A stretch of DNA of 64,000 nucleotides from Candidatus Omnitrophota bacterium (GCA_041667545.1 JBAYES010000003.1:2467-66466), one strand, 5' to 3'. Shown: positions 6,176 through 46,150, counted from the first letter of the stretch. The notes: generated from the sequence alone by a model not told the origin. Numbers and translations are program-made.

Positions 6176-7819
6176 TTATGATAAAAGTGTTTTAATCCGA
6201 CCCTTAATATTCTCATAAACAGTGGTCAATTTTCTTTTGGCTTCATCCGTCAAGCGTGCAGTATGCATCAAAGCATCGCGTATCGGTTTATATTGCTTGG
6301 AATCGTTAGGAAGAGAATTTTGTCCTCCAGTCTTATCAACAAGATTCGCAAGACCCTGCATATCTAAATAACTTATATCGACATCTACGTGACGAATATC
6401 AATATTGATGCCACCTGCCACTTTATTTTGTGACTCTCTTCGCTTCCATTCATTAATATCCCTCTGTGCTTCCGGAGATATCGTAATATTTTTTTCGGTG
6501 ATGAATTTTCTGATTAAATTCTCCGAAATGAAACAATCAGCATAAGATGCAAAGTTAAAGGCCGCATCTCCGGCTAACTCATTTACCCAACCATCGACTT
6601 TCTTTTTATTTGTAGCTTCTTTGGGAAGCACAAAATCTTCCGTTACCGCATTGAATAATTCTTCAGCTTTTCTTTCTTTTGTAGATATTATTGCATTATC
6701 CGGATCCCCATCGTTGCGATGCTTCCTGCGCCAAGTATCCCAATCGTTAAGAATTCTTCCGATAACTTTGTCGCGGAGAAAATCCAAGAATTCTTTGTAT
6801 TTAGGATCATCGGCAACAATGCTTTCACGGCTACTGGTAAATCTATCCATTCCGTCGTCCAAATCATTAAAATGGATCTGCCCATATAAGTAGCTTTCCA
6901 CGACTCTAGCCGTCGGGATATGCTTAAGAATATCTCTTTCCCGCAATCTTCCATTGACAAAAAGATCCACCCCGACCCTTTCGTCCATGGTGATTATCTT
7001 CAAATCGCGAGGTTTTTCTACCGAGGCGATAAATCCCTTTATCCCGGCTTCTAATTTGAACTGACCGATCTCTTTCAGTTCGAAACTTTTGCATAACCTG
7101 TCGATATATGGGTCCCGGAGATCGTTTATTTTCCACAAGAACTGTGTACGTGAAGCCAGATCATCCAAACACTCATGAGTAACTAGTTCGTCTCCAATAT
7201 AAATCTTAAAATTGGGATCAATCAGGGAAAATCGAAAGTACAACGCAACGATCTTTTTAAGAAATGCCAAGCTGTGCTTTATTCCATCTTTTATATTTTC
7301 GAAATGAATAATAGTTCCCTGATCGTTATCCTTTGTGAACTGCGCAAAAGCGTCCAGCTTCACATCTCCTAGCTGGTATTCTTTCGGAGTCAAATCGTCT
7401 GTAATAGCCTTATCCAAACCAGAGTTGTCTATGACTCCTCCTATATAATCACCTCCAGCCTTCTTTGATATGACCGCGATTTTCTCAGCACAGGACAACA
7501 AAGCAAGCTTGCCTATACCCTTTCGCCCTATATAAGGCCTGTTTTTATGGGGCGATGAATGTCCGTCCCTCCTTTTGGAGTATCCTATTTTCAAAAACTT
7601 ATTCTGAAAATCATCAGCCGTCATTCCAATTCCATCGTCCTTAATAAGAAAGCGCCCGTTCTCTTTATCAATATAAATATACACGCTCTCCGCATTGGCA
7701 TCCCAAGCGTTCGATATAGCTTCCCCAAGCACAGTGGCAAAACTTCTGTACAAATTTCTCCCCAAATGATTTAGAACGCTTAGTGAAATCTCAAACGAAA
7801 ATTTGTTGGTTTTCTTCAT
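6176..7819 (-). CDS. GHKL-family ATPase (HATPase_c_3 / MORC-Hsp90-like)
   Basis: N-box EAISNAWDANA, G1 box DDGIGM and G2 box GRKGIGKLA. Confidence 0.65.
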   Translation of the reverse strand: MKKTNKFSFEISLSVLNHLGRNLYRSFATVLGEAISNAWDANAESVYIYIDKENGRFLIKDDGIGMTADDFQNKFLKIGYSKRRDGHSSPHKNRPYIGRKGIGKLALLSCAEKIAVISKKAGGDYIGGVIDNSGLDKAITDDLTPKEYQLGDVKLDAFAQFTKDNDQGTIIHFENIKDGIKHSLAFLKKIVALYFRFSLIDPNFKIYIGDELVTHECLDDLASRTQFLWKINDLRDPYIDRLCKSFELKEIGQFKLEAGIKGFIASVEKPRDLKIITMDERVGVDLFVNGRLRERDILKHIPTARVVESYLYGQIHFNDLDDGMDRFTSSRESIVADDPKYKEFLDFLRDKVIGRILNDWDTWRRKHRNDGDPDNAIISTKERKAEELFNAVTEDFVLPKEATNKKKVDGWVNELAGDAAFNFASYADCFISENLIRKFITEKNITISPEAQRDINEWKRRESQNKVAGGINIDIRHVDVDISYLDMQGLANLVDKTGGQNSLPNDSKQYKPIRDALMHTARLTDEAKRKLTTVYENIKGRIKTLLS

Positions 7820-7859
7820 GCTTACACCTTATTTTTTTGCGCAACTAACACAGTCGGAA

Positions 7860-9746
7860 TTATCCTGTAATCGTCACGTAGGTTTTTATCATACTGATAT
7901 TTTCCTTACGAGTTTTCTTCTCGTACCCAATCTTATCGCAAATATTCTCAATCTTTATTGCAAATTTATCGCAGTCGACCTTGGTCATCGACAAACCCTT
8001 GCTGGTGCGAACACTCGTATGCCATTCAGCATCCACATCAAGTGGTTTCTGAGGCCTGTGACCATGAATATTAAAAACTCTATGGTCTGTTCGCGTGATC
8101 CAACCAGCGCCAACTTCCGTCACCGCACCCCAAGAACCAGCCATGTCCTTACTGGTGACATAAATAACATAGATTTTTTCGGTTGAATAACTTTCGACGA
8201 AAAACTCCCTTAAATAATCCCAGACTGCTATGCCGTCTGGTATCCGGCTTATCTCATCGTCGCAATTCGTATAGATGATATCTTCGGAAGGAACCCGATT
8301 GAATAATAATAGGTTGTATATAATATCTGCCAAATCTTTATCCTCTTTGGTGTGGCATATAAGAATCCTTCTTTTCTGTGCATCAAGTTTTCTCTTTATG
8401 CCCACAATCGGGAGCAACTCATTCATTTCATCTTTGATAATTTTTTCTACTTTTTCCGGACTAATTTTCTCTGTTCGCCTCAATTCCTTTGTGATTTTCC
8501 TCGTTGCAATATTCGAAGTCTCCTTTTTATATCTTTCGACTAATACTCTCAGTTTCTTTTCCTTCTCGAGCTGTTCTCTCATTTTTTCTTTTTTCTTTTC
8601 ATCATCTTTATAGTTCGCATAAGCTGCTCTAATCGCAACAATATCAGGCAATAATTTCTTTGCGACGAACGAAATCACTTCTTGATATCTCGGGTCATCG
8701 GTTTTATACCCCTGCCGATTACTCAACGACATATCGGGCAATTCGGTTTCTTCAAATAAATCGATATGAAGTTGTCCAACCACATATACTTCCTGTAGCT
8801 TGTTCTTTCCTACGATCGGAAGTATGTTATATTCACCCAGCTTACTATTGGATAAGAGCGAAATAAAATTATCCGGAAAATCGTCCGTCTCCGCTTTTCT
8901 CCCTCTTGTAGTTTTATAAACTCCAATCCATCCTTTGATAATCAAATCATATTCTTTCTCTTCCCCAGTTTTATTTCTGAGCTTCATAAGCCTCTTTTCT
9001 TCATTACGAAACTGCAATAGTTCTTTTCCTTTCTTAAGATAATCGTTTTCGAAATATTTGCTCAAATAGTTAAAACCGGAGCCAATGATAATCAAACCTC
9101 CAAGCTCCTTGATCATCTCTCGATCAAAGCTATCAATGATCATTTCATTGTTGTCCTGAATAATATGTACTCGAAAACTTTTGTCGATGAGAGGAAAGAT
9201 CTTCAACAGGTTTCTCTTGATCGCATCAAAGGACTTGTTCAATCTATAGCTTGGGTCTTTCATTATTATTGAGGTGCCGTGCTTTCCAATTTTTTCGAAT
9301 TTTATGTCCTTTTCGCTCAAAGCCTCCAAAAGTCTATTAGCCGCGATATGTCTCGTAAGAATAAATCCCGACTTTTCCCCGGCCTTGACCGACATAACCC
9401 ATACGTTTTCGGAAATAGAAATAGCCGCTAGTTTTCCGATACCTTTCCTCCCAATTTTCCTGCGCCCGCTCCCCGTGTAGGCATCTTTTTGTGTCGTTCG
9501 AGTCTCTTCTGCTACATGCAAATATTTATTCGTATCTTCCGGATACCTCATTCCAACTCCATCATCTTCAACAATTATGGAATCGGATTTCGCTATTATA
9601 TATACATTTTTTGCATCAGCATCGTAGGCGTTTGCGATCAACTCAGCCAGAATGTAATAAACATTCGTATAGAGATGGGGCCCCAAAAAATCCAACAATT
9701 TTGGATCGAGTTCAAGCCTGTATTCGCGCTTTGATTGATCAACCAT
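7860..9746 (-). CDS. GHKL-family ATPase with a Lys/Glu-rich coiled-coil and a C-terminal TIR-like (DUF1863-like) domain
   Basis: N-terminal boxes ELIANAYDADA, DDGVGM and GRKGIGKLA. C-terminal segment ILICHTKEDKDLADIIYNLL...IYVIYVTSKDMAGSWGAVTEVGAGW resembles the TIR beta-A / alpha-E pattern. The start overlaps the stop of the upstream m5C methyltransferase by 8 nt. Confidence 0.55.
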   Translation of the reverse strand: MVDQSKREYRLELDPKLLDFLGPHLYTNVYYILAELIANAYDADAKNVYIIAKSDSIIVEDDGVGMRYPEDTNKYLHVAEETRTTQKDAYTGSGRRKIGRKGIGKLAAISISENVWVMSVKAGEKSGFILTRHIAANRLLEALSEKDIKFEKIGKHGTSIIMKDPSYRLNKSFDAIKRNLLKIFPLIDKSFRVHIIQDNNEMIIDSFDREMIKELGGLIIIGSGFNYLSKYFENDYLKKGKELLQFRNEEKRLMKLRNKTGEEKEYDLIIKGWIGVYKTTRGRKAETDDFPDNFISLLSNSKLGEYNILPIVGKNKLQEVYVVGQLHIDLFEETELPDMSLSNRQGYKTDDPRYQEVISFVAKKLLPDIVAIRAAYANYKDDEKKKEKMREQLEKEKKLRVLVERYKKETSNIATRKITKELRRTEKISPEKVEKIIKDEMNELLPIVGIKRKLDAQKRRILICHTKEDKDLADIIYNLLLFNRVPSEDIIYTNCDDEISRIPDGIAVWDYLREFFVESYSTEKIYVIYVTSKDMAGSWGAVTEVGAGWITRTDHRVFNIHGHRPQKPLDVDAEWHTSVRTSKGLSMTKVDCDKFAIKIENICDKIGYEKKTRKENISMIKTYVTITG

Positions 9747-10809
9747 GGTATTCCTTCATATGGCGGATGATGCTTCTTCCGATTATTTCTCCGAGCCTGA
9801 CAGGGACTGCATTGCCTATGTAAACTCCTATTTTTCTGAATGAAAATGGCGTTTTTCTATCCCAAAATTTATACTTGCGTGGGAAAGTCTGCAACATGGC
9901 TCCTTCTCGTAGGGATAACGCCCTATCTTGCTCGGGGTGGCCGAAGCGCCCTGTTCCGAAACTATAAAATTGAGTGGTTATCGTTGGGGAAGGACAATCC
10001 CATCTCATCCTTGAATAAACCGAACTGTAAGTCTCCCCCGACTCCTTTTGATGACACTGGGCCCGCAACCCTTCTTCCCAGTCCTTCCAACTCCCTCCCG
10101 GCTTAGACTTTCGTATTCTTTTAAGATTGATTTGTGTAAGCGTTGCGGAACGATGAAGAAAATCGTTTCTCGAAATCGTACCGGCGTCAATCAATTCGAG
10201 TTTACCAATGGTATCGGCAACCGTTTTATAGTTCTCGCGTTTACGCGTTGCTGGCAACAACTCTATTTTGCCCAGCTTTGATGCCAACAATACTAAACGA
10301 GTCCTGTTTTGCGGAATTCCATAGTCAGGACAAAAAACCGATTTCCATGACACGAAATACCCCTCATCTTTGATACCGCAGACAAAATCCTCGAAAACTT
10401 TGTACTTAGCCAGCTGTGGAACATTTTCCATAGAAATAATCGTTGGCTTTAGCTCTTTGACTAACTTCAGAAAATGATACAAAAGACCCCACTTTTCATC
10501 TTGGTCTCTTTCTTTATTTTTTTGTGTGTGCTTTGAAAAGGGTTGGCAAGGCGCACATCCGACCAAAATCTTCAGATTTGCCGATCCGTATAAGGCGTTA
10601 AGCTCCGTTGCTGTAAAATCTTTAATATTTTTAGCAATAAATTTTGCATCATTATTTTTCTCATATGCAAACTTGCAAGACTCATCCAGATCCACACCCG
10701 CCGAGACTGCAATCCCAGATTTAATCAATCCATGGGTCAACCCACCGACGCCGCAAAACAAATCAACGGCAACCGCCGATGTTGCTTTTTTATTATATTG
10801 ATTTCGCAT
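9739..10809 (-). CDS. dcm: DNA (cytosine-5)-methyltransferase
   Basis: Motifs DLFCGVGG (I), GCAPCQPFS (IV), ENV (VI), QNRTRLVL (VIII) and GNAVPV (X). Confidence 0.85.
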   Translation of the reverse strand: MRNQYNKKATSAVAVDLFCGVGGLTHGLIKSGIAVSAGVDLDESCKFAYEKNNDAKFIAKNIKDFTATELNALYGSANLKILVGCAPCQPFSKHTQKNKERDQDEKWGLLYHFLKLVKELKPTIISMENVPQLAKYKVFEDFVCGIKDEGYFVSWKSVFCPDYGIPQNRTRLVLLASKLGKIELLPATRKRENYKTVADTIGKLELIDAGTISRNDFLHRSATLTQINLKRIRKSKPGGSWKDWEEGLRAQCHQKESGETYSSVYSRMRWDCPSPTITTQFYSFGTGRFGHPEQDRALSLREGAMLQTFPRKYKFWDRKTPFSFRKIGVYIGNAVPVRLGEIIGRSIIRHMKEYHG

Positions 10810-10902
10810 TCCCCATCCTCTCCCAATTCAAGTCTTTCAGATCATGAAGCTGAAAAACACGTCCATAAAAATGAACCTCTGCAATTTTGCATCCCTATAT
10901 TT

Positions 10903-11454
10903 TCAAGAAACAGATCTGATTTTTTCCCGGACTCGCTCTGCAATAACATCAGCCTCTTTGAATAAATCCATGACTTTATTCTTTATTGAATCTAATCCCC
11001 CTATCTCGTCAGGGCAAACCTTTTTTATTTTTCCGTAGTCAACTTGAGCAGGAAGATATTTCTCAAAATACCGTTTAATGGCTTGAATTTTCAAAACAGC
11101 GTCAACGCCGTTTTTCTTTCTTAAAAAAACTTCCCAATCCCGGTTTCCTTTTTCAGAATTGCATTTTTTACAGCTTGGCAAAAGATTGCCGATTACATGG
11201 CCGTATCCGGAAAATTTGAGATCCTTTACTAGACCAAAAACGTGATCCCAAGTCTCCGCCTCTGTCCCACAATATACACATAACAAATCCTTCTCTGGAT
11301 CTTGACCGAGCAAGGCAACAGCTTCTTTGACTGTTTTAAGATCATACGAATCATTCGGAGCGATAGCGGAAGCGAAGGCATGATTTATCGTAGTCTGCCT
11401 TTTTTTCATTATTGAATACGGCTGTAAATGTGTCTTAATGCTCTCTATTTTCAT
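10903..11454 (-). CDS. HNH endonuclease
   Basis: Motif CVYCGTEAETWDHVFGLV...GNLLPSCKKCNSEKGNRDW. The start overlaps the Vsr stop. Confidence 0.55.
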   Translation of the reverse strand: MKIESIKTHLQPYSIMKKRQTTINHAFASAIAPNDSYDLKTVKEAVALLGQDPEKDLLCVYCGTEAETWDHVFGLVKDLKFSGYGHVIGNLLPSCKKCNSEKGNRDWEVFLRKKNGVDAVLKIQAIKRYFEKYLPAQVDYGKIKKVCPDEIGGLDSIKNKVMDLFKEADVIAERVREKIRSVS

Positions 11455-11849
11455 ACAACACCGGTAATTTTCTTCAAACTTTTATCCAAACTACGCTTTA
11501 TATCTTTTTCCCACAAACGGATTACCGTCCACCCCTCCCCCTTAAGCGCTTTGGTAACCTGCCTGTCTCTCTGCTTATTCCGGGCAATCTTCTGCTCCCA
11601 ATAACCACAGTTTGACTTCGGCATAATGCACCGGGTCCGGTGTCCATGCCAAAAATCCGAATCGACAAATACGACTACCCTTTTTCTCCGGAAAACAAAA
11701 TCCGGCTTGCCAGTAATCGTTTTTACATTCTTTGCAAAATATATCTTTTGCCTTCTCAGCTCTTTAGCAATCAAAAGCTCCGGCTGAGTTCCTTCAGACC
11801 GGATATTCTGCATATTTTTCCTGCGTTGTTCAGGCGTCAAGTTATCCAT
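11451..11849 (-). CDS. vsr: very-short-patch repair endonuclease
   Basis: Motifs TQPELLIAKELRRQKIYF...GKPDFVFRRKRVVVFVDSDFWHGH and GWTVIRLWE. Confidence 0.8.
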   Translation of the reverse strand: MDNLTPEQRRKNMQNIRSEGTQPELLIAKELRRQKIYFAKNVKTITGKPDFVFRRKRVVVFVDSDFWHGHRTRCIMPKSNCGYWEQKIARNKQRDRQVTKALKGEGWTVIRLWEKDIKRSLDKSLKKITGVV

Positions 11850-13739
11850 CTACCTGTCGACCTTATAAAAATTCTTTCCTTCCGGAAGTTTAATATTAGG
11901 TATCCACAACGGCTCGCCGTCCCATCCCTTGCCCTCCTCGCCGTTAATTCTATAAAGCGTAAGAACCGGCACATCCCTGACTGAATCTCCCAGCGACCGA
12001 TCAACCGGAGACAGCAACGTCCCGGTTCCTTTTGATATACTGCGGTCTCTCCTGACAATCAGCATTGCTTTATTATCCGCATGGCTCGCTTTCAGCGCCT
12101 TGATACAGTTCACGAAAGCCGTATTTGACCAGTCAGATTTGTCTTCACTCTCAAAATTCTCCAAAAGAGTAATAACCCCGTTAAGGGTGGTTTCATGCAT
12201 TCCCTCTCCAGAATACGGAGAAAGCATATCATCGACCTGCCTGACGTGTTTTCTTTTAGGAAAATTCGGGAAATAATTTACCCCGCCGACAATCACATCC
12301 ATCAGCTTGCTGTCTACCACATTCGATCTTGTCGGCTTAATCCCCGGGGGATAAAGAAGACTTATATCCTCAGTACTGGTACTGCTTATCTGGCCTATTA
12401 ACGCCCTGTTGCCACTGTTTAATTCTATAAAAAGCTTTAACAGCGACGGCGGAATAAAAAAACGCATCAAGTCAGGGTCCCGGTCGTATCCGAACATCCG
12501 GCAGTGTTGCCAAAATGTATCCGCCTGAGGCGCTTTTGCAGTTCGACAGTAGTAAACCGTATGGAGCGCGGGAAACGTAACGCCTCTTCCAAGACTGTTC
12601 CCGCCCACAATAATACTCATTCCTCTTGAACAGTCGACCTCGTTGCTTCCAATTGAATTCATAACAAAAATTTTTATCTGTTCCTCGTTTAGTTTCTTTT
12701 TGAGAAAATCGTGAATCTTATCAAAATCTATAGTCCCGGACTTTGTTTTTTGAAGATCTTCCCAAGACTCCTTGAGAAAATCCCCCATCTTATCTTCAGA
12801 TACAGCAAGAAGCATTTCGTTTAAATACTCTCCAAGTCTGCGGGCAATGCGAGTATGGTCTGCAATCCTGACACTCGGATGGACAAGAAAATTGCAAGCC
12901 TGCGCGCTTTTAGATAATAAAACGTGCGCCCCTGTCACTAAAAAAGTTAACAGCGACATCCGAAGACCTTCGGCAATAATCTTCCCTTCGTCTCTCAGCT
13001 CGTCTAATTCATTTTCCGGAGTAAGTCTGATACACGGCGAAGGCGGATCGCTGTAGAAAAAACTGCCGCCGAGATACCCGGGCCCGGGCGCGAAATAATG
13101 CACAAACGACGGCCTCCACCCTGTTGTTTTCGACTGAAGAAACAGCGACTGGGGCGTAGCCGTCACCTGAAGGTACATACTGCTGTTGGCCAGCTTCTTC
13201 ATTCCTTCCAAGTGACGGTTAATTGTGCTCTGCTGTTTTTTATTAATTTTTGTATTCAGGCTGGCGGCGTCTCCCTCATCATCAATGATAAACAACGGAC
13301 GGCCTTCACAGAACTTTGACGATGACAAATTGTCTTTCCAGCGCTTAAGAACTCTGTTGTTCTTTTTAATCACGATCATCACAGGCTTGCGGATTTTTGA
13401 CTCCATAAATTTAACATCATCGTCTTCCCCGCACACGATGAAAGTATCCAGCGCATGTTCCGCCCGTTTAAGCGTCTGCTCATGGAGATATACGTTATCC
13501 GTAGTAAGAAAAACAAAGATCGAGAAACCTTCATCAGCTGCGGCCGAAACAAGGCCCAGCACTTGACTTGTTTTCCCGCTTTGAACATTGCCGAGAAGCA
13601 GTCCTGTTAAATGATCACGGAATGAAAACGTTTTGATATGCTTTGGGATTAAGACATCAATAGTTTGCTTTATCGACGAGGAAATGCCGGGAGAGGCTGT
13701 TTCAATTTTCTTTAGGTAACTTTCAATGTGAATCCCCAT
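11850..13739 (-). CDS. Z1-domain P-loop NTPase, candidate N-protein of a CglI/NgoAVII-like ATP-dependent restriction system
   Basis: Walker A LLLGNVQSGKTSQVLGL (Z1 signature hhGxVQSGKT). Second Met (MGIHIE, 13739) is preferred as the start because it avoids a 65-nt overlap with the upstream PLD gene. Confidence 0.55.
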   Translation of the reverse strand: MGIHIESYLKKIETASPGISSSIKQTIDVLIPKHIKTFSFRDHLTGLLLGNVQSGKTSQVLGLVSAAADEGFSIFVFLTTDNVYLHEQTLKRAEHALDTFIVCGEDDDVKFMESKIRKPVMIVIKKNNRVLKRWKDNLSSSKFCEGRPLFIIDDEGDAASLNTKINKKQQSTINRHLEGMKKLANSSMYLQVTATPQSLFLQSKTTGWRPSFVHYFAPGPGYLGGSFFYSDPPSPCIRLTPENELDELRDEGKIIAEGLRMSLLTFLVTGAHVLLSKSAQACNFLVHPSVRIADHTRIARRLGEYLNEMLLAVSEDKMGDFLKESWEDLQKTKSGTIDFDKIHDFLKKKLNEEQIKIFVMNSIGSNEVDCSRGMSIIVGGNSLGRGVTFPALHTVYYCRTAKAPQADTFWQHCRMFGYDRDPDLMRFFIPPSLLKLFIELNSGNRALIGQISSTSTEDISLLYPPGIKPTRSNVVDSKLMDVIVGGVNYFPNFPKRKHVRQVDDMLSPYSGEGMHETTLNGVITLLENFESEDKSDWSNTAFVNCIKALKASHADNKAMLIVRRDRSISKGTGTLLSPVDRSLGDSVRDVPVLTLYRINGEEGKGWDGEPLWIPNIKLPEGKNFYKVDR

Positions 13740-14796
13740 TGCCCCTCCTGAAATCCAGTATCCATACGTCAGGTTTTGAAGTGGCAATCAGTTCAAAATT
13801 GTCCCTTCCGTAACGCCTGAGCGTGTCTGCTGTAACCGGTTCGCCGACCTTAAGGGCTCCGTTGTTCTCAAGACGTCCTTTTATCCATCGGCCTAAAATC
13901 TTTAGATCATCAGCCGATCGGAAATTCTTGCTGTAATCGCCACTGATTTTGCATCTAAATTTCCAACCGTCATCAGTATAGACCGTAATAATGCTCTCCC
14001 TGTCGGGATATCCTGCTTTAGGATATCCCAGCTGACCGGTGATATCGCTTGAAACGATTAATTCGACCTCATACCAATGCCTTGGCTTAACAAACCCTTT
14101 TCTATTTTCTCTCCCCTTGCCGAAGAATACATTCAAGTTACTGTGAGGGGCTTCCTCTGCACCTTTAATGGGAATCTTAAACGCTGTCGGCGTCCTGTCT
14201 AAAAGAACCGCCTGCAATTCTTCCTGCGAAGGCTTATCCACGCCTTCATGCCCGTCAAGAAGACTATTCTCGCTCTCAATAATCTTAGGCGTATATCCCT
14301 CCAGCGGGACGCTGGCTTCACGCGACAGACGAATAATAAAATCATTAATTTCCTTTACAGTGCTTTGTTCATCCAAAAGCAGATCTGCTTCATAGTGATT
14401 TTGGCTGTCGAGAATACTGCTTAAATTCGACGAACCTATCAGCCCGGCAAACGGATTTGTTTCTTTAAGAAAACTGTACACCTTTCCATGAAATTTAAAT
14501 GCATTGGCGACCATAACACCGCCGATTTTATTTCCGCGCAAATATTCATCGAGATATCTCGCGGCGTCAAACTGCGACCGGGTAAAACCATCAAATCCGT
14601 GCATGCCGATCACAATTTCCAAGAAAGATTTCTTATTCTCTTCAATGATTTTCTTAAGTTCAGCCAGCGCATCGGCAGAGATATACCCTGAAGCAATCCT
14701 GATGCCGTCGGCATTCTGAATTAAATCTTCAAAACACGTGATCGTATTCCTTTTAGAAAATCGTACCGGCGGGATATTGGATAAAAGTAATTCCAT
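13723..14796 (-). CDS. PLD-family (HKD) restriction endonuclease, NgoFVII/NgoAVII/CglI R-protein-like
   Basis: HKD motif AFKFHGKVYSF...GSSNLS. Directly follows and overlaps the m5C methyltransferase by 1 nt. Confidence 0.6.
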   Translation of the reverse strand: MELLLSNIPPVRFSKRNTITCFEDLIQNADGIRIASGYISADALAELKKIIEENKKSFLEIVIGMHGFDGFTRSQFDAARYLDEYLRGNKIGGVMVANAFKFHGKVYSFLKETNPFAGLIGSSNLSSILDSQNHYEADLLLDEQSTVKEINDFIIRLSREASVPLEGYTPKIIESENSLLDGHEGVDKPSQEELQAVLLDRTPTAFKIPIKGAEEAPHSNLNVFFGKGRENRKGFVKPRHWYEVELIVSSDITGQLGYPKAGYPDRESIITVYTDDGWKFRCKISGDYSKNFRSADDLKILGRWIKGRLENNGALKVGEPVTADTLRRYGRDNFELIATSKPDVWILDFRRGNGDSH

Positions 14797-15911
14797 TAGA
14801 GAGCTCCTGCTAAAGTCTGTTCTTCAATAATATGCTCCATACGCTTTTTGACAGGAATATCCTTAAATCTGCTGTAAACCTCTTGGAGATCTGTATTTTC
14901 ATAGTCTCCTGTAAAAAGCGGCATTAAAGCCTTTGCTAATTCTGCAACCCCCTGGGGAGGAACAGCATTTCCAATCTGACGCCTTACTTCGGCAACAGAA
15001 CCGACAAACTCAAAATCATCAGGGAATGACTGAAGTCTCGCCCGCTCACGGTTAGTCAAAGGTCTTGGATCCGGATAATGATATCCCCATGTCCCGCCCC
15101 CGCCAGCCGCAATAATCGTTTTGGCCGGTTCGTTTCTGCTGATACGGCGGTATACGTGACTGATCATTCCTTTAACATAATAAGGACTGTCTACAGGAAC
15201 ATTCGTGAAGTTGCCGCCTTCGGGAATAAGTTGAAGCATTTTTACCGTCTTTGCGGCAATGTTCATTCTCTCATTATTTAATTTAACTTTACCAGCGCCC
15301 TTTAAAGCCGCACCAGCTGTGATATAAGGTTTTTCTACCGAAGGTCCGTGCGTAGGCCGGGGATGGCAAAAATCGAACCCTGTATCGATGCGTATTCCTA
15401 CAATAAGAACGCGCTCTCTGAATTGAGGCACTCCATAGTCGGCGAAATTATACAGCTTAGGCTTAACTATATACCCCGGGCTGATTTTTTCAAAATCACT
15501 TACGATTTGCTCAATCGCCCTTCCGTTATTTGCCGTCAACAAGCCCTTTACATTCTCGGCAATAAAAGCTTTCGGTTTTTTTGCGTCGACAAAACGAAGA
15601 AAGCTTTTGTATAAATTCCCTCGTTCACCGTTAAGTCCCGGCCTTTTCCAAATCATCGAAAAATCCTGACATGGAAATCCTCCTAAAATTAAATCGCAGT
15701 CAGGAATTTTTTTGCTTTTAGGATTTACTTTCTCAATATCACCACAGTGCATAACACTGCCTAAATTCCTCTCATATGTGGCGGCTGCCCATTCGTTAAA
15801 ATCGTTTGCCCATACAACCTCATATCCCTGTTTGTGAAAACCAAGATCGAGCCCGCCGCATCCGGCAAACAAAGATATAATTTTCGGTACATAGCTTTTT
15901 GATTTCGTCAT
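14796..15911 (-). CDS. DNA (cytosine-5)-methyltransferase (M subunit of the PLD/Z1 restriction system)
   Basis: Motifs LFAGCGG (I), GGFPCQDFS (IV), ENV (VI), QFRERVLIVG (VIII) and GNAVPP (X). Confidence 0.85.
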   Translation of the reverse strand: MTKSKSYVPKIISLFAGCGGLDLGFHKQGYEVVWANDFNEWAAATYERNLGSVMHCGDIEKVNPKSKKIPDCDLILGGFPCQDFSMIWKRPGLNGERGNLYKSFLRFVDAKKPKAFIAENVKGLLTANNGRAIEQIVSDFEKISPGYIVKPKLYNFADYGVPQFRERVLIVGIRIDTGFDFCHPRPTHGPSVEKPYITAGAALKGAGKVKLNNERMNIAAKTVKMLQLIPEGGNFTNVPVDSPYYVKGMISHVYRRISRNEPAKTIIAAGGGGTWGYHYPDPRPLTNRERARLQSFPDDFEFVGSVAEVRRQIGNAVPPQGVAELAKALMPLFTGDYENTDLQEVYSRFKDIPVKKRMEHIIEEQTLAGAL

Positions 15912-15923
15912 TCATTGCTCCTG

Positions 15924-15956
15924 TCAAAAAAATAAACCGGCAGTTAATGCCGGTTT
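15924..15956 (-). terminator. rho-independent terminator (AAACCGGCA-gttaat-TGCCGGTTT then T-run on the minus strand)
   Basis: Perfect 9-bp stem, 6-nt loop. An A-run at 15924-15933 on the plus strand gives a T-run after the hairpin on the minus strand. Overlaps the stop of the small RHH gene. Confidence 0.6.
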
Positions 15957-16114
15957 CAATTTCTTTTTCTTTTCCATTCCTTCAAATCTTTTTCGATCAG
16001 TTCTCGTATAATTGATATAATAGAAGCATTCTTATTCTGCTTCTGCAGTTCAAGTGCCTTTTCCTTTAGAAAGAAATACTGCTCCTCGCTGATTTCTATT
16101 GTGGTCTTTTTCAT
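15956..16114 (-). CDS. small ribbon-helix-helix (CopG/Arc-like) regulator, candidate controller (C) protein of the R-M locus
   Basis: Start assumed at MKKTTIEISEEQYFFLKEKALE, giving a beta-strand followed by two helices. Sits directly upstream of the M-R-N operon. Confidence 0.45.
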   Translation of the reverse strand: MKKTTIEISEEQYFFLKEKALELQKQNKNASIISIIRELIEKDLKEWKRKRN

Positions 16115-16158
16115 TTTGGTTCCTTCTGTGGCAAGCATAAGTACACCGTCCCCCTGTT

Positions 16159-16192
16159 AACCTATATTGCTATATTTATAGCAATATAGGTT
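16159..16192. promoter_or_regulatory. perfect 16-bp-arm palindrome AACCTATATTGCTATA-tt-TATAGCAATATAGGTT, candidate operator (C-box-like) upstream of the RHH gene
   Basis: Perfect inverted repeat seen directly, 45-80 nt upstream of the RHH start on the minus strand. Confidence 0.6.
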
Positions 16193-16242
16193 ACGGATGT
16201 CAATTAGAAAGTCTTGAAAGGCCCATAAAAACAAAAACCTCC

Positions 16243-16290
16243 GCTGGTAATTTGCGCCAGCGAAGGTTTTGCTTTTTTAAAGTCCGGGAT
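16243..16290. terminator. bidirectional rho-independent terminator (GCTGG-taatttgcg-CCAGC with A- and T-runs on both sides)
   Basis: Hairpin flanked by aaaaacaaaaacc upstream and ggttttgctttttt downstream. Separates phage late-region genes from the R-M cargo. Confidence 0.5.
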
Positions 16291-16360
16291 TTATTCCTTC
16301 AAACTCGGGACTATTCATCGCTATATTTATATATCTAATGTATCACAAATCAAACAGAAA

Positions 16361-16693
16361 TCAATTTTTTTTTATCAATAGTAAGTTTGCTTTGAAATAC
16401 ACGTTGACCATCTCCGCGGCGAACTTCTGTTTGCCTCCGATATGCCAGTCGGTGTTCTGCTCCGGATCCAGATTCGACTTGTAGTCGTAGATCGTGAATA
16501 CAAGGCCGTTGATCCTGCCGACCCACTCGGCCTTGATCTTGCTGTCCGGCGAAGTGCCGAGCTGTGGCGCGCCGAAGACCCGAACGATATCCTCGTAACG
16601 CGTTCCTTCCGGCAGGTATCCCTGACAGCCGGTGCCGTCATGGGATACCCCGCCCATCTCAACCGTTAGTTCTATCTCAGCTTTAACTTTCAT
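16361..16693 (-). CDS. hypothetical phage protein
   Basis: 110-aa ORF. A GC-rich overlapping frame (16375-16662) is present, so the frame call is uncertain. Confidence 0.35.
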   Translation of the reverse strand: MKVKAEIELTVEMGGVSHDGTGCQGYLPEGTRYEDIVRVFGAPQLGTSPDSKIKAEWVGRINGLVFTIYDYKSNLDPEQNTDWHIGGKQKFAAEMVNVYFKANLLLIKKN

Positions 16694-17114
16694 TCTGCAC
16701 CTTCTTCTTTCCCCAGCCGGACTTCCATCGGGCTACCGCACCGGCCACGATCGCGTCTATTTCCTGTTGAGTGACACCCGCGGCAAGTGCCTTCATAAGC
16801 TCACTTTTATTAAGCACTCTGAAATTCTTGATGCCTCGATCTTTCGCTTTTAACATAAGAGAATGACGGCTTTCCTTGCCATCGGTCTTAACATCCCCGG
16901 ATCCCTTCTTTGTGATCTTCAATCTTTCACAAATCGCCTGAACCCCGCACTTTGAAATCGGGATTTTCTTGCCTTCCAACTTTGTCATAACTTCCTGCCT
17001 GAACTTGCTATTTGCGGGCCCGGCAAGCCGCCACACTTCACGTTCGCGATCACGATCATTTAAACTCACTAATTTTTCAATATACTCACTGACATTCATG
17101 GCATCCCCCTTCAT
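16683..17114 (-). CDS. hypothetical protein with C-terminal Rho_N/SAP-like helix pair
   Basis: Start chosen at MKGDAMNV (ATGA overlap with the upstream stop at 17111-17114). C-terminal segment NKSELMKALAAGVTQQEIDAIVAG. Confidence 0.35.
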   Translation of the reverse strand: MKGDAMNVSEYIEKLVSLNDRDREREVWRLAGPANSKFRQEVMTKLEGKKIPISKCGVQAICERLKITKKGSGDVKTDGKESRHSLMLKAKDRGIKNFRVLNKSELMKALAAGVTQQEIDAIVAGAVARWKSGWGKKKVQNES

Positions 17115-17377
17115 AATACCGATTCCTGTAATTTTCCGGTCATAACATCCATCATCTGGAAATGCGTAACGCCCGCATCCTTCCATTGCTGTTCGATCGT
17201 GATCGACCATTTGCCCAGCGGCATGACCCTCTGGATCTCCCTGAGTCGCAACTTTGCGGCCGGAAGATGATCGCGCATGCGGCCCGACACCGGAATGTTC
17301 TCGATGTACGTTTCCTCACCGCCGTTCCTGACGCTTATATACCGCGTCTTTTTTGCTGTCATATTCTCTTTAACCAT
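17111..17377 (-). CDS. hypothetical protein
   Basis: ORF only. Confidence 0.3.
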   Translation of the reverse strand: MVKENMTAKKTRYISVRNGGEETYIENIPVSGRMRDHLPAAKLRLREIQRVMPLGKWSITIEQQWKDAGVTHFQMMDVMTGKLQESVL

Positions 17378-17440: not shown

Positions 17441-17773
17441 TTAAAAATCTACCCGAACACCGGCTTTGGCCCCGACCCCTTTTCGGTCGTCGGATTCCGC
17501 GAAACCGTACCCCTCTACAAACGGATGTATCCCGATCCCGGGCTTCTTTTCTTCGCGTTTCTGATCGATCATAACCTGCGCGCCCGGCTGGGCGATGATA
17601 TGCGTCTCCTGTTTCGTAGTCTCTGTCGGCATAAAGAAAGCCTTATAGATCGTGAGCCCTATAAGCCCGATCGCCGCTATCCCGATCGCGTAGCGCGCGG
17701 TCTTGACCCACGGCAACCATTGAACGAAACTGCCTAAAAACTTGAGAATACTGAACCTTTCCTGATCCGCCAT
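17441..17773 (-). CDS. single-pass membrane protein (possible holin/spanin-like; no lysin identified nearby)
   Basis: TM segment YAIGIAAIGLIGLTIYKAFFM. Confidence 0.35.
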   Translation of the reverse strand: MADQERFSILKFLGSFVQWLPWVKTARYAIGIAAIGLIGLTIYKAFFMPTETTKQETHIIAQPGAQVMIDQKREEKKPGIGIHPFVEGYGFAESDDRKGVGAKAGVRVDF

Positions 17774-17979: not shown

Positions 17980-20900
17980 CTAATCCCAAGCAAGACTTAC
18001 TCCATGCAGTTTTACATCTTTGTTATTATGCGTTGTCAGCTTATATCTCACGTTATTATCCGCGCCCTGCCCGGACACATCAGCAACCGCATGCAAGATC
18101 CTTTTCCCTGTGCCGTAATCCCCTTCGTCTGAAAGATCCATATCTTCCCAAGTCGCTCCGTCATCACGCGAAACATATGCTTTTAAATCCGTATTAAGCG
18201 CGATACTCTCAACATCTTCTTCCTGCATAACTATACGCACGGTGTCCGGATTTTCTTCGGCTGGGAATTGAGCGCTTTTAAGTTCCATATTTTCAGGTGT
18301 GCCTTCATCGTATTCCGATGTAAGCGGAGTGAATGAAGCTGTATGCCTCGCTATGCCTTTAGAGATCCTGAGTTCATCCATACAACCCTTTAACCCGTAT
18401 CTTCTAGCGGAATAGGTTTCGTTACCGATCGTGACATTTGACGATGCCTGTATGTCGATCGCGCAGGTACCTGAATACACCAATGACCCGTTAATAAATA
18501 TGTGGAGCTGATTCGTTCCTGTCCCTGCCCGGCATACCTCTATGTGATACCATTCTCCGAAGATCAAAGGTAAAGTTGTCGTGTAATTCGTATCAACGAT
18601 ATACACCTGTATATAGTTTGTCGAAGTTTTACGAATCGTCCACGATACTCCGCCGCTATCGTAATTACTGACTAAAAAGTGTTCCGTCGCAGTTTCCAAT
18701 GGCTTATACCAGCAATCTATCGAGAAGTTGCCCGTCCCGAACTGGAAATCCGACCCGCCGGGTATTGTCAGATAATCGCTATTAGAAAACCCCTTATACA
18801 CCCCATCCCCAAAGACCGATACCCAGTCAAGCTTGGATGTACCTACACAAACAACACTGTACCCATTGGCACTCTCATCTATTATGATGCGATTTCGATA
18901 ATCTTCTGTAAATCGACAAACAACATCAGCATTGCGGGTTACCGTATGTCCGGTATTTCCATCATCGCTAAAAATGTTGCCGTTCGTATCATTAGGTGTA
19001 CCTTCAAAATGCATGAGTAGCTTGGTGTTTGAATCAGAAACAAAAGCTGTTGTCGGTGGTATAAAATTTGACGTATATCTCGCTGTGTTTGAGATCCTCA
19101 ATTCTCGCATCCACCCTTTACAGTTAGCTCCGCCACCACCCACTTCTCCAATTTTCACTAATAATGTTCCAGTAATATTTTTACTATTAGTTCCTGTAGC
19201 AGTAGCATTGCTCTGAACTCCGTTTATAAACATACGCAGATTACCGCTACTATCTCTGCATGTAGCAAAGTGATACCACATACCCGGGATCGGAGTAAAA
19301 CCTAACCCTTGATATTCAGTTGTGTTGAGATACGTATGAAACCCCGCAGTTCCGCCTCCATCATATATTGACATCCTGATCCCTGTTCCTGTTCCGCCAG
19401 AACCGATATCAACCATGCATGTGCCTCCTGCCGCCCCATCCCACTTAAAAAAACCCTCGATAGTGAAAGCCCCAGTTCCAAAATCCCAATCCGCATGGTC
19501 TGGTACTGAAAGCCAACAATCACTTGTTCCGTCAAAATATGCACTACTCCCTAAGGGATTATTTAAATCTTCAGGGGCATCGAAATTTAATAGCAGTAAA
19601 GTATTGGCGTCTGTCTCATACGGCAATGTCGGAGCTTCATTCTCTCGCACAGTATTCGAAATTCGAAAATATTTGATCCAGCTGTACGTGTGGCTGTTCG
19701 CGATGTTCTCACCGTACCTTAACGCCCCTATACCCACTTTCCCGGTCGGTGATACAGTAGTCGACGAGGTGCTTGATCCTACCAGTTTTTCGTTCAGGTA
19801 TATGCTGTAATTATTACCGTTTCTTATTATCCTTACGCGGTACCATGTGTTCTGGACTAAATACAATCCTGAAGCCGTGCAAAGTGAATACGTACCTCCC
19901 CACCCTATGCTTGAACTACTGATACTTAACCCTAAATATGACGAATCGCTGGTATAGTGAGTAAACGGATATCCTTGCGGCGTCTCGTGGAATAAGATCT
20001 CAAACTCTATTGTATAATTCGAGTTCCAGCATGTCGGCGTCCAGTCGATCTTTAAATAGTCCGAATCCCCGTCAAAGAAACCGGCTGTTTTGTTTAACCT
20101 GACAGGCATTAACGCGGCGTTATTGCTTGGTGTAACCGTTTGCCCGCTACTTGACACGTCAACAAAACCCGCGTCCGCGGAATAAAACTCAAGCCAAGAT
20201 AAATGCCCTTCGTCCGCTGTCTGTATCGATGAAAAACTGAATCTGTAATACCGATACGAGGTGCTGTTTGAAAATGAAAAGTATTTCCTCTCGCCCTGAC
20301 TCCAAGTGACCGACCGGGAATCAAGCGTGGCCCAGTTCGATCCGTCATTTGATCCTTGAAAAGTCCACGCATTGAATGTTCTGGCATAATAACTGTCGTT
20401 CTCTGATCCAAGACAATACCCTTTCAATACTTTCGTGATCCCGACACCGAAATCATATGTTAAGGTTTGGTTTGGGCCCTGATGAGCCTGATCTCCCCAA
20501 TAAGTCACTGAATTCTTGTCCAGAAGTTTGTCCGTATTGTACGCGCCTGACACGGTAAGTGAAGACGAAAAGTTACCCTGATACAAAATTTCTCCGGCCC
20601 CGTTAAAATGCATTAAGAGTTTCACATAACTATCCAACCCGCCTCCGCTTTTCAGCGGAGATACAACCCCATCATTAAGGGAATAATTGGAGCTTCCGCC
20701 TGAGTCTATTCCTGAACTATCCTCAAACGAATCCACTATGCCGTCGATCATGCCGAATTTTGATAAGCTTTCATTGCTGGCTATCTTGAAAAACGCGATC
20801 ATGATGTTGCCTTCGATACGATCGGCAAGTTTAAGCCTGCTGTTGACATATTTGATCGTGAAATCATCCACCGAATCACTCAAATCCGTTTCTTTGGGTA

Positions 20901-21399
20901 TCATATATAGCGGCCTTACATCCTGATATATGTACCCATCGTCCTCGTTGGCATCCTTGTCCTCAAAATTAACTATTTTTGTCATTGTCGTTCTGCAATA
21001 AACCGTGCATACGGCTATCGCCTCGTCCGGTAAGCCGCTCCATTTCGCTAAAGGCGTTATGTCTTCATCACCCGAAACCCACGCGAGATTCCCGGCACTA
21101 TTCAAGTACAGGATATCAATCCGGGCATATTCTGCCGGAGCAGTTATTCCCGGAGAATCCCCGCCTTCAAAAACGACGGGTTCTCCGTTACGGTGGATCT
21201 GGTTAAAATAATTTTCGACACTGCTGGAAGCCACATTCACTGTCATATCAGCCGTATCCTGCGCTCTTGCCCTTAACGCGGATACGTCTCCCTGAAATAA
21301 AGCGCTCAGCGCATTCCTGATATCGCTTGAAACCGGAGATCCGCCTGATACCGGTTTTGTGCTTTCGTTCCCTACCGCCGGAAATATAGCTTTTGCCAT
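17980..21399 (-). CDS. tail fibre / receptor-binding protein with discoidin (F5/8 type C)-like and concanavalin-A-like (LamG) lectin domains
   Basis: 1139 aa. Segment QTLTYDFGVGITKVLKGYCLGSENDSYYARTFNAWTFQGSNDGSNWATLD is discoidin-like. Repeated LamG-like segments are present. Position is immediately after the J-like gene. Confidence 0.55.
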   Translation of the reverse strand: MAKAIFPAVGNESTKPVSGGSPVSSDIRNALSALFQGDVSALRARAQDTADMTVNVASSSVENYFNQIHRNGEPVVFEGGDSPGITAPAEYARIDILYLNSAGNLAWVSGDEDITPLAKWSGLPDEAIAVCTVYCRTTMTKIVNFEDKDANEDDGYIYQDVRPLYMIPKETDLSDSVDDFTIKYVNSRLKLADRIEGNIMIAFFKIASNESLSKFGMIDGIVDSFEDSSGIDSGGSSNYSLNDGVVSPLKSGGGLDSYVKLLMHFNGAGEILYQGNFSSSLTVSGAYNTDKLLDKNSVTYWGDQAHQGPNQTLTYDFGVGITKVLKGYCLGSENDSYYARTFNAWTFQGSNDGSNWATLDSRSVTWSQGERKYFSFSNSTSYRYYRFSFSSIQTADEGHLSWLEFYSADAGFVDVSSSGQTVTPSNNAALMPVRLNKTAGFFDGDSDYLKIDWTPTCWNSNYTIEFEILFHETPQGYPFTHYTSDSSYLGLSISSSSIGWGGTYSLCTASGLYLVQNTWYRVRIIRNGNNYSIYLNEKLVGSSTSSTTVSPTGKVGIGALRYGENIANSHTYSWIKYFRISNTVRENEAPTLPYETDANTLLLLNFDAPEDLNNPLGSSAYFDGTSDCWLSVPDHADWDFGTGAFTIEGFFKWDGAAGGTCMVDIGSGGTGTGIRMSIYDGGGTAGFHTYLNTTEYQGLGFTPIPGMWYHFATCRDSSGNLRMFINGVQSNATATGTNSKNITGTLLVKIGEVGGGGANCKGWMRELRISNTARYTSNFIPPTTAFVSDSNTKLLMHFEGTPNDTNGNIFSDDGNTGHTVTRNADVVCRFTEDYRNRIIIDESANGYSVVCVGTSKLDWVSVFGDGVYKGFSNSDYLTIPGGSDFQFGTGNFSIDCWYKPLETATEHFLVSNYDSGGVSWTIRKTSTNYIQVYIVDTNYTTTLPLIFGEWYHIEVCRAGTGTNQLHIFINGSLVYSGTCAIDIQASSNVTIGNETYSARRYGLKGCMDELRISKGIARHTASFTPLTSEYDEGTPENMELKSAQFPAEENPDTVRIVMQEEDVESIALNTDLKAYVSRDDGATWEDMDLSDEGDYGTGKRILHAVADVSGQGADNNVRYKLTTHNNKDVKLHGVSLAWD

Positions 21400-37749: not shown

Positions 37750-38007
37750 TTATCCCTCAGTTTCTACACTTTTAAACTTCTTCCCACACCCACGACACAC
37801 ATGATATCGTACCGGCAGTCGGCTCACATAGCATCGAACATCTTTGCTTTGGCATTTCGGGCAACGTAACGGGATAAACGTAACTCCGCACTGATCATCG
37901 TCTGCCGGAGTGGTCTCTTTTACAGGCTCATCTTCTTTAATCCAATTTTTGTATCTTTTTATCCATCGCCCCATTAAATCCACGATCCCTTTGTTTTGCG
38001 GAGCCAA
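37750..38007 (-). CDS. small zinc-ribbon protein (CxxC...CxxC)
   Basis: Motifs CPKCQSKDVRCY...CRGCGKKF. Overlaps the TerL 3' end. Confidence 0.4.
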   Translation of the reverse strand: MAPQNKGIVDLMGRWIKRYKNWIKEDEPVKETTPADDDQCGVTFIPLRCPKCQSKDVRCYVSRLPVRYHVCRGCGKKFKSVETEG

Positions 38008-44298: not shown

Positions 44299-44422
44299 GA
44301 TAGAAAGCAAGCATCTGTGATCCCCGACCTTAAGCACCCTAAGCCCTTGTTATAGCTTGACTTGGGATGCCTTCTATTATAGGGTTGGGTCGCATTGCGA
44401 AAAACGAATTCGAAAGGATGTT

Positions 44423-46150
<1,728 letters not shown>

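Follow-up and report, generated by a model that had tools for sequence, protein, structure and literature searches.

A CglI/NgoAVII-type restriction-modification operon on an Omnitrophota prophage and its putative ribbon-helix-helix-like leader repressor

The Locus and Its Genes

The stretch of DNA considered here, 64,000 nucleotides from a Candidatus Omnitrophota bacterium (GCA_041667545.1 JBAYES010000003.1:2467-66466) and called the window throughout, carries on its minus strand, from position 16203 down to 10903, one compact unit of genes in the order leader-M-R-N-Vsr-HNH. The segment is probably a functional-looking restriction-modification (RM) operon of the CglI/NgoAVII type, borne among the cargo toward one end of a temperate, siphovirus-like prophage and governed by a single promoter and a ribbon-helix-helix (RHH)-like leader autorepressor. 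An earlier interpretation made from the DNA alone (the sequence-only reading) had placed the segment in the CglI/NgoAVII class and listed, in order, a small regulator, a terminator, an m5C (5-methylcytosine) methyltransferase, a PLD nuclease, an NTPase and Vsr; all were found as listed, and the class assignment is borne out by the match of R to a solved structure, by the profile matches of N and by the order M-R-N.

M (14796..15911, minus strand; 371 aa) is a C5-cytosine DNA methyltransferase with matches to PF00145 (E 1e-80), TIGR00675 and the PADLOC model MTase_II (E 1e-118), and its end overlaps the start of R in the sequence TAATG. The PLD nuclease R (13723..14796, minus strand) contains both NgoFVII domains (PF09565, E 5.8e-35; PF20731, E 2.7e-37) and is also matched by PADLOC REase_II (E 3.7e-104). 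The similarity of this 357-aa protein to R.NgoAVII, on which the earlier class assignment depended, is evident from the deposited chain 4rct (E 3.8e-85), with which residues 3-351 align at 48% identity overall, the B3 domain (63%) being more alike than the PLD domain (37%). Residues H103, K105, N124, E136, K211, K283 and R293 are invariant in an alignment of 14 sequences (52-95% identity). When mapped onto 4rct, H103, K105, N124 and E136 correspond to the PLD active-site residues H104, K106, residue 124 and E137 of R.NgoAVII (PMC4267654), residue 124 being N in the deposited chain and printed as D124 in the paper; K211 and K283 correspond to the clamp-phosphate lysines K212 and K275, and R293 to R285, the reader of the central guanine.

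N (11850..13739, minus strand) is a helicase-like motor identified by PF10593, by 6f1s (E 5.4e-23) and by PADLOC Helicase_II (E 5e-217), in agreement with the NTPase predicted earlier. It contains the motifs GNVQSGKT at 50 (Walker A), DDEGD at 153 and QHCR at 411, following published motif definitions (PMC5861437). Its ATG at 13739 follows AGGAGG and lies inside the end of the R gene, giving a protein of 629 aa, and every close relative has N called at this length; the 645 aa given by the sequence-only reading was a TTG-extended form. The very-short-patch T:G mismatch endonuclease Vsr (11451..11849, minus strand; 132 aa), the start of which abuts the stop codon of N, scores above the curated cutoffs of both PF03852 (85.4 bits; cutoff 27) and TIGR00632 (125.3 bits; cutoff 97.85).

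The unit does not end with Vsr at 11451, as had been supposed, but continues into a gene for a 183-aa HNH-motif protein (10903..11454, minus strand), which has weak matches to PF01844 and to the PADLOC HNH model and overlaps the Vsr stop codon in the sequence ATGA. This gene, with which the operon ends, is conserved along with the cassette at several related loci (L001/3/4/6 and L008), being kept after Vsr in the group of loci closest to the window and in one Omnitrophota locus. Its family comprises 536 homologues, mostly without a Pfam call, and members adjoin Vsr and an m5C methylase in unrelated systems (L192:4530-5558, L194:5001-5971): an Eco29kI-type system in L192, a methylase-only cluster in L194/195 and, in L193, a Vsr fragment. 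One homologue stands alone in a defence island. Judged by these associations, the distribution suggests that the HNH protein is a recurrent partner of Vsr and that the two form an accessory pair.

The junctions M/R, R/N, N/Vsr and Vsr/HNH all show translational coupling, and every reading frame in the unit is intact. Comparison with a relative 87% identical in DNA (95% identical in R) gave ratios of non-synonymous to synonymous substitution (dN/dS) of 0.034 for M, 0.037 for R, 0.046 for N, 0.065 for Vsr and 0 for the leader; values of 0-0.065 for all five indicate that these genes are maintained by selection. At least five independent contigs retain the full set of genes. The anatomy of the operon, its homologies, the integrity of its motifs, the purifying selection on it and its comparative associations are shown by the analysis itself.

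Relation to the CglI/NgoAVII Class

The restriction system itself is a plain member of the CglI/NgoAVII class, one already recognized gene by gene by the REBASE-derived PADLOC models under the name 'Type II REase + Type II helicase domain protein'. The colinearity of m5C methylase, R and N/H that characterizes the class is present in the window and, in a survey of the best 80 genome loci of the R family, was found in 77, so that it may be called the family rule. Sixty-three of the 80 had enough flanking sequence to be evaluated for neighbouring genes, and in 34 of these Vsr is adjacent to M-R-N, after N in 28 and before M in six. The class had been described as rare but is not: R has 1836 homologues at E<=1e-10, and a pattern-limited scan located relatives in the genomes of at least 255 species. 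The identical leader-M-R-N-Vsr-HNH arrangement is shared by all of the closest relatives (95% identity in R), which comprise an IMG/VR viral contig, several metagenome contigs and one contig of a Smithella metagenome-assembled genome (MAG). A megablast search of positions 7800-17300 against 50,697 GenBank phages returned no match, and hence no annotated close relative exists in that collection.

The prototypes, CglI of Corynebacterium glutamicum (prophage CGP3) and NgoAVII of Neisseria gonorrhoeae FA1090, differ from the window operon in several respects. R is only 48% identical to R.NgoAVII, the operon has the two extra genes Vsr and HNH, and it adds upstream an RHH-like leader, an operator and a terminator, none of which appear in the prototype papers searched; a text search of one of these found no mention of Vsr or of a controller (PMC4267653). 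Since CglI itself lies in prophage CGP3 (PMC4267653), a phage-borne copy is not new.

Proposed Mechanism and Recognition Specificity

The prototype enzymes act as an R2H2 complex, and cleavage needs H together with extensive ATP hydrolysis and one-dimensional translocation (PMC4267653; PMC5737866; see also PMC5861437). From these prototypes we infer both the enzymatic activity and the specificity of the window system. M would methylate cytosine-5 within a short site (GCSGC in the prototypes) and so protect the resident DNA. Two R subunits would dimerise through their PLD domains to build one active site, and the B3 domains, within an R2H2 complex, would read an unmethylated asymmetric 5-bp site (GCCGC in the prototypes); the encounter of a translocating complex with one bound at the site would then lead to a double-strand break a fixed few bases away from that site. 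Vsr would repair the T:G mismatches that arise by deamination of 5-methylcytosine.

The specificity is probably GCCGC/GCSGC, given that the residues reading the central pair are conserved and that identity in the B3 domain reaches 63%. Besides R293, the equivalent of the central-guanine reader R285, the two acidic residues that contact the central C are retained (WYEVEL motif). Three points weigh against this assignment and would favour an enzyme of the same family with another specificity, either GCWGC, as in BceSIV, or a further 5-bp site. The central base varies within the family, BceSIV reading GCWGC (PMC4267653); the tip of the N-arm of R differs from that of R.NgoAVII (RENRK vs RRDKR); and GCWGC is depleted 5-fold in the window (17 observed vs 83 expected), with GCSGC at expectation (148 vs 153). 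The last of these is offset by the equal depletion of CCWGG (22 observed vs 88 expected), the two sequences being approximately 4-5-fold depleted over the whole window, where GCGC, CCGG and GTCGAC occur at expectation and GGCC is mildly low (0.69). The shortage of GCWGC and CCWGG is, on these counts, more likely a general avoidance of common host Type II sites, and site avoidance is uninformative for GCSGC because that sequence occurs at expectation. With the conserved readers of the central pair and the high B3 identity set beside it, a specificity other than GCCGC/GCSGC is considered unlikely.

The Leader Protein

The first gene of the unit (15956..16138, minus strand) encodes a 60-aa putative autorepressor with a conserved core that starts at M8 and includes KKTTIE. 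It differs from its counterpart in the relative L003 by 13 synonymous and no non-synonymous changes (dN/dS of 0), and is therefore regarded as a real and strongly constrained gene. Searches recovered 275 homologues in MAGs of many phyla, most of them with 70-100% identity across a core of 45 residues; the family ranges from 53 to 75 aa in length, and its core motif is (K/R)KTTIE(I/L)xE(E/D)QYFFLKEKALELQKQNKNASI(I/V)SIIR(D/E)LI.

The fold of the leader was approached by modelling. An AlphaFold2 (AF2) monomer model built with 31 homologues (predicted local distance difference test score, pLDDT, 87.9) has residues 1-10 extended, followed by helices at 11-26 and 33-52, and the best Foldseek matches to it are RHH proteins (template-modelling score, TM, 0.55-0.77). 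They include the ParD/PrpA antitoxins, NikR and the RHH ParB of pCXC100 (TM 0.55-0.68) and, among viral models, a phage 'putative regulator' (E 0.04, TM 0.77) and CopG-like proteins. The leader is hence predicted to be RHH-like, with a strand and two-helix topology. Like the RHH repressors CopG, Arc/Mnt, ParD/PrpA and the N-domain of NikR, it combines small size and this predicted topology with an (N/G)-x-S motif at the start of helix 2; unlike them, it has no detectable sequence or profile similarity to the group, and its structural matches fall below significance.

Several results count against an RHH identity. The N-terminal strand is not formed in the AF2 monomer model, and the Foldseek matches have E values of 0.04-7, none of them secure for so short a chain. 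Thirty-one leader homologues searched against Pfam at E<=10 hit no RHH family, the best match being DUF7063 (0.013), and a profile of the leader family run against PDB sequences returned only a chance match to enolase (E 1.1). The leader itself had no match in Pfam, NCBIfam, PHROG or PADLOC, so that membership of an RHH family was not detected at the level of sequence profiles. The RHH identity given in the sequence-only reading draws support from the predicted strand and two-helix fold and from the weak best fold matches, which are RHH regulators; a sequence or profile match to an RHH family was not obtained.

To our knowledge, regulators of RM or defence expression and of the swapping of cassettes at hotspots are known for only a few families, namely the helix-turn-helix (HTH) C proteins, BrxR/CapW and RptR. 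Like C.PvuII, C.AhdI, C.Esp1396I and C.Csp231I, the leader is a small protein, predicted to bind DNA, at the head of an RM unit, with a palindromic operator (a putative one in the case of the leader) that overlaps its own promoter and with presumed autoregulation that would set RM expression after entry into a new cell. The C proteins, however, are HTH (Xre-like) activator/repressors that usually precede R, whereas the leader precedes M with a terminator between. A search of HTH families with the leader found no match, and with a strand and two helices predicted, a classical C protein of the Xre type was rejected as its identity.

RptR, the RMS-proximal transcriptional regulator of Type I RM and defence islands in the Gammaproteobacteria (79 aa), was described in 2025 (PMC12255303). 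As is proposed for the leader, RptR is a small dimeric repressor, first in an RM/defence operon, which represses its own promoter by way of short conserved repeats; protein and binding site show high conservation between genomes, as do the leader and its putative site, and its locus has been discussed as a possible recombination hotspot (PMC12255303). RptR is nonetheless all-helical, with an HTH-like, four-helix structure; it recognizes direct repeats of TAGCTA and is linked to Type I systems (PMC12255303), whereas the leader family is RHH-like, has an inverted repeat and is found with many RM types in other phyla. Length, predicted fold and operator thus set the leader apart from RptR as described (PMC12255303), and its membership of that family was rejected. 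A copG-like gene beside TaqIII was also considered; it is described next to parA as a plasmid copy-number repressor, and no link between it and the leader family was found. A search of the literature for RHH-type RM controllers brought up nothing relevant, the literature covered being limited and the result no proof of novelty.

Promoter, Palindrome and Terminator

Upstream of the leader, a -35 hexamer TTGACA (16198..16203, minus strand), invariant in close relatives, is followed after 17 bp by a -10 hexamer TATAAA (16175..16180, minus strand); both were read from the sequence. A consensus scan for promoters missed this site because it demands T at position 6 of the -10 hexamer. The -10 hexamer lies inside a palindrome of 17+2+17 bp (16158..16193), TAACCTATATTGCTATA / AA / TATAGCAATATAGGTTA, with perfect arms and a non-symmetric 2-bp centre. 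The sequence-only reading had reported a perfect 34-bp palindrome at 16159-16192, which is real and proves to be longer, at 36 bp. It is the sole long, perfect, close-spaced inverted repeat in the 64 kb, and the chance of a perfect pair of 17-bp arms was estimated by the author as ~64000 x 4^-17, or ~4e-6 per spacer length. Extra copies of the operator were sought in the window and none was found, the half-site being unique and a third match needing 3 mismatches. The palindrome is composed of four CTATA/TATAG sub-sites at 8-bp spacing and spans the promoter spacer, the -10 hexamer and the expected +1.

Sub-sites of the form CTATA/TATAG at 8-bp spacing would suit the cooperative binding of RHH dimers, and CopG at Pcr likewise has short sub-sites at 8-bp spacing overlapping the -10. 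The leader protein would bind the palindrome and repress its own promoter; protein so bound would cover the -10 and the +1, and the expected outcome is therefore autorepression. The arrangement recurs across the leader family: in most of 77 distinct upstream regions TTGAC(T/A) is followed, after approximately 17 bp, by a -10 of TATAA(A/T) that sits within an inverted repeat with the pattern (C/G)C(T/C)ATAT-N3-TATAA|TTATA-N3-ATAT(A/G)G(G/C), of which the window has the most perfect version.

The conservation of the repeat also has features that speak against an operator. In the 95%-identical relatives the palindrome is imperfect (14 of 17), its perfect part being confined to the inner 10+2+10 bp, and compensatory changes sought among close relatives were absent, the outer arms being simply imperfect. 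Conservation of the left arm is moreover confounded with that of the -10; as the centre of the repeat is the -10, part of its conservation is promoter conservation. It is the symmetric outer arms of the repeat that argue for an operator.

An inverted repeat farther upstream (16227..16277), with 21-nt arms that are 86% complementary, resembles a bidirectional terminator and is conserved in close relatives; it delimits the transcription unit of the cassette on the upstream side and closes the phage gene there (16361-16693). At the other end of the leader gene, an intrinsic terminator or attenuator (15926..15956, minus strand) has a 9-bp GC-rich stem, AAACCGGCA/TGCCGGTTT, a 5-nt loop and a tail of A and U7. 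The hairpin at 15934-15956, between leader and M, has a folding free energy (dG) of -15.4 kcal/mol (z = -3.6), and its stem is invariant in five relatives.

A scan for consensus promoters found no minus-strand promoter-like site between the leader start and M (15912-16138), and for this reason expression of M-R-N-Vsr-HNH is proposed to depend on read-through. The RM genes would be transcribed by read-through of the leader-M terminator, by which the leader would be kept in excess over the enzymes; steady-state expression of the RM genes would be low, and would peak in the absence of repressor, for instance when a new cell is entered. Both the binding of DNA by the leader and terminator read-through are steps that we infer, and the latter is the weakest part of the model.

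Two features of the terminator tell against read-through. A hairpin followed by U7 looks efficient and, if it is, expression of the RM genes would need another promoter, and none was found. The terminator is, furthermore, specific to the group of loci closest to the window and absent from leader loci with other cargo, so that the regulatory logic here may differ from that of the rest of the family. A reading that sees the RM genes as insulated, in their transcription, from the leader and its promoter builds on these points, and on the strength of the hairpin and the invariance of its stem: an efficient terminator would leave the leader to regulate itself or some other phage function, and M-R-N-Vsr-HNH would be expressed from an unrecognized promoter or by phage late transcription. 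Against it stand the lack of a promoter-like site already mentioned and the position of the ribosome-binding site of M, which starts only 4 nt after the U-tract. At all other loci of the leader family the first RM gene begins 2-40 nt after the leader stop without a hairpin, an arrangement that argues for co-transcription, and the synonymous divergence (dS) of the leader, 0.53, equals that of N, as expected of genes inherited together. Insulation of the leader from the operon is accordingly judged distinctly improbable, and autorepression combined with read-through is retained as the preferred model.

The Leader Ahead of Other Restriction Systems

The leader is not a component of NgoAVII-type systems as such, a role rejected on finding it in only one of the 63 evaluable genome loci, the 95%-identical Smithella contig; three loci with 73-77% identity in R (L002, L007 and L008) are without it. 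In the same slot many other NgoAVII-type loci carry an Xre-type HTH gene, 11 of 26 sampled small open reading frames (ORFs) matching HTH_3/HTH_26. As the position upstream of M is occupied by the leader, by an Xre-type HTH gene or by some other small ORF, it is viewed as a slot for regulators, filled on several independent occasions. Two side observations concern this slot. At the NgoAVII-type locus of a Bathymodiolus symbiont, a 61-aa ORF just upstream of M (L014:4605-4790) is RHH-like by eye and unrelated to the leader; and one member of the sampled slot ORFs, which the output did not name, has a weak match to RHH_10 (E 0.0035).

The contexts of the leader were followed through a larger set of 103 loci drawn from viral and metagenome collections, 64 of which had a downstream gene chain of at least 300 aa. 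A recognizable DNA methylase lies downstream of the leader in 57 of these 64, and two of the remaining seven are truncated copies of a GHKL system in which the methylase is the third gene. In Pfam searches of 77 representatives of the downstream clusters the predominant families were N6_N4_Mtase (16), ResIII (9), DEAD (5), N6_Mtase (4), DNA_methylase (4), Eco57I (3), PLDc_2 (3), MethyltransfD12 (2) and RE_NgoFVII (2), and those seen once include NgoPII, MvaI/BcnI and Methylase_S. In related phages the leader is directly upstream of a Type II-like cluster of Dam-like and N4/N6 methylases in L086, of a Type III-like cluster of two methylases and a Res helicase in L089 and of a Type I hsdM-hsdS-hsdR cluster in L090, and it precedes an N4/N6 methylase cluster in a Saccharicenans genome. 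One and the same chromosomal flank of efflux-pump and patatin genes, together with the leader, is followed by GHKL-ATPase/m5C methylase/Vsr cargo in L093-95 and by HEAT/N4-N6 methylase/AAA_23 cargo in L096-98. Searches with tblastn gave no match among the plasmids of PLSDB and a single match among cultured phages, in the Thermus phage phiLo (L196, MH673673, 15376-15942; 62.7% identity), where the leader is matched by the N-terminal portion of a 188-aa gene, annotated as 'putative restriction endonuclease', that has a putative methylase and a Type III Res subunit downstream. The 188-aa gene is either a fusion or an over-extended gene call.

The proposal of the sequence-only reading that the palindrome is an autoregulatory operator gains comparative support from these data, namely a conserved promoter-embedded palindrome in most of the upstream regions and RM genes downstream in the great majority of loci; a database match, by comparison, is wanting.

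Boundaries between retained and exchanged DNA were located by alignment. The DNA homology of the window to leader loci with other cargo ends 5-12 nt before the stop codon of the leader (15961-15968; stop 15956-15958), and between L093 and L096 the alignment can be carried to position 6184, a single base beyond the leader stop codon. Within the window, positions 10817-10873, between HNH and M2 (the methylase gene of a neighbouring system), hold a 57-nt remnant, 81% identical to the 5' coding end of the 933-aa AAA_23 gene of the L096-L098 cassette. In an IMG/VR contig (L106:8478-8963) the final 29 codons of a CglI-type N gene (86% identity) survive immediately ahead of an 80%-identical Vsr, and this N fragment and Vsr lie inside a different leader-headed m5C cluster. 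To judge from the alignments, these scars testify to repeated exchange of cassettes downstream of a leader that stayed in place.

Another reading takes the leader to be a gene of the phage backbone, for example a regulator of a lysogeny or lysis module, that happens to adjoin a cargo hotspot and is functionally unconnected with RM genes. Leader homologues of 75-85% identity in related phages do follow homologues of the window genes at 16361-16693, 17111-17377 and 17441-17773; four phage lineages keep the upstream phage genes and the leader while the cargo changes, and the leader is absent from 62 of the 63 evaluable bacterial NgoAVII-type loci. Homologues are nevertheless present in non-phage chromosomes, after the efflux-pump/patatin genes or between metabolic genes and again directly upstream of RM genes, and on these contexts a phage-only backbone gene was rejected. 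The frequency of downstream methylases and the phiLo domain, which heads a methylase/Type III Res cluster, point the same way, and a leader with no functional tie to RM genes is held to be very improbable.

The leader is, on the comparative evidence, best read as a portable leader repressor of RM operons. We further propose, as a tentative view to which we give slightly less than even weight, that it is the founding member of an undescribed cross-phylum family of RHH-like 'RM leader' repressors in which gene, promoter and operator form a portable 5' module placed before Type I, Type II, Type III-like, CglI-type, GHKL-type and other methylase systems, and which may double as a recombination handle for the exchange of RM cassettes at defence hotspots; the end of sequence homology at the stop codon of the leader and the scars at 10817-10873 and in L106 would suit such exchange. 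That the leader gene itself provides the homology for such recombination is speculation.

Prophage Setting and Neighbouring Genes

The location on a phage given by the sequence-only reading is confirmed by genes for the large terminase subunit (37974-39818), the tape measure (26440-28101), the central tail fibre J (21409-25068) and a baseplate/fibre protein (17980-21399), and by large serine recombinases (2294-4096 and 44357-46090) that bracket the phage structural genes at both ends. A tyrosine integrase (46166-47320) lies just beyond the right-hand serine recombinase, and this combination of enzymes suggests that a further integrative element adjoins the prophage or is nested with it. The cassette is part of the cargo that lies between the left recombinase and the tail/lysis end.

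Directly downstream of the cassette is a second, separate RM-like system composed of an m5C methylase, M2 (9739-10809, minus strand), and two GHKL-ATPase paralogues of the BbrUII/HgiDII restriction-enzyme family (7860-9746 and 6176-7819, both minus strand); the first of these is a protein of 628 aa, whose C-terminal residues 386-558 match the TIR-type SpbK model (E 2.4e-16). The 95%-identical relatives have in place of M2 and the GHKL genes a SIR2 gene and then a HerA-like gene (SIR2_2; DUF87/HerA_C; L003:13908-16914, L004:5607-8613), and the region after the HNH gene is for this reason regarded as a second variable defence slot.

That the cassette is a decaying or non-restricting remnant, for instance an active methylase that protects phage DNA by itself, is scarcely credible: orphan methylases are frequent in phages and this hotspot bears scars of earlier cargo, but the reading frames are intact, no catalytic motif is missing, M, R, N and Vsr have dN/dS values of 0.03-0.07, and the complete gene set has been kept in the independent contigs noted above.

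Three further genes of the window were recorded in passing. A phage-encoded ParB-like domain is fused to a DNA methyltransferase at 40406-41710 (phrog_498, E 1.5e-101), a DUF4238 gene lies on the plus strand just downstream of the terminase gene (36688-37737), and a 2510-aa minus-strand ORF (56426-63958) is located outside the prophage part of the window.

Significance

Taken by itself, the restriction system adds little beyond one more intact operon of the CglI/NgoAVII type, a compact, well-conserved and phage-borne example, together with evidence that Vsr, sometimes with its HNH partner, is a common accessory of the class. The module of leader and operator is the more interesting and testable lead. 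Were the proposal to hold, the leader would be a testable general regulator before every major type of RM system across many phyla, and would serve as a practical marker for RM and defence cargo in metagenomic phages.

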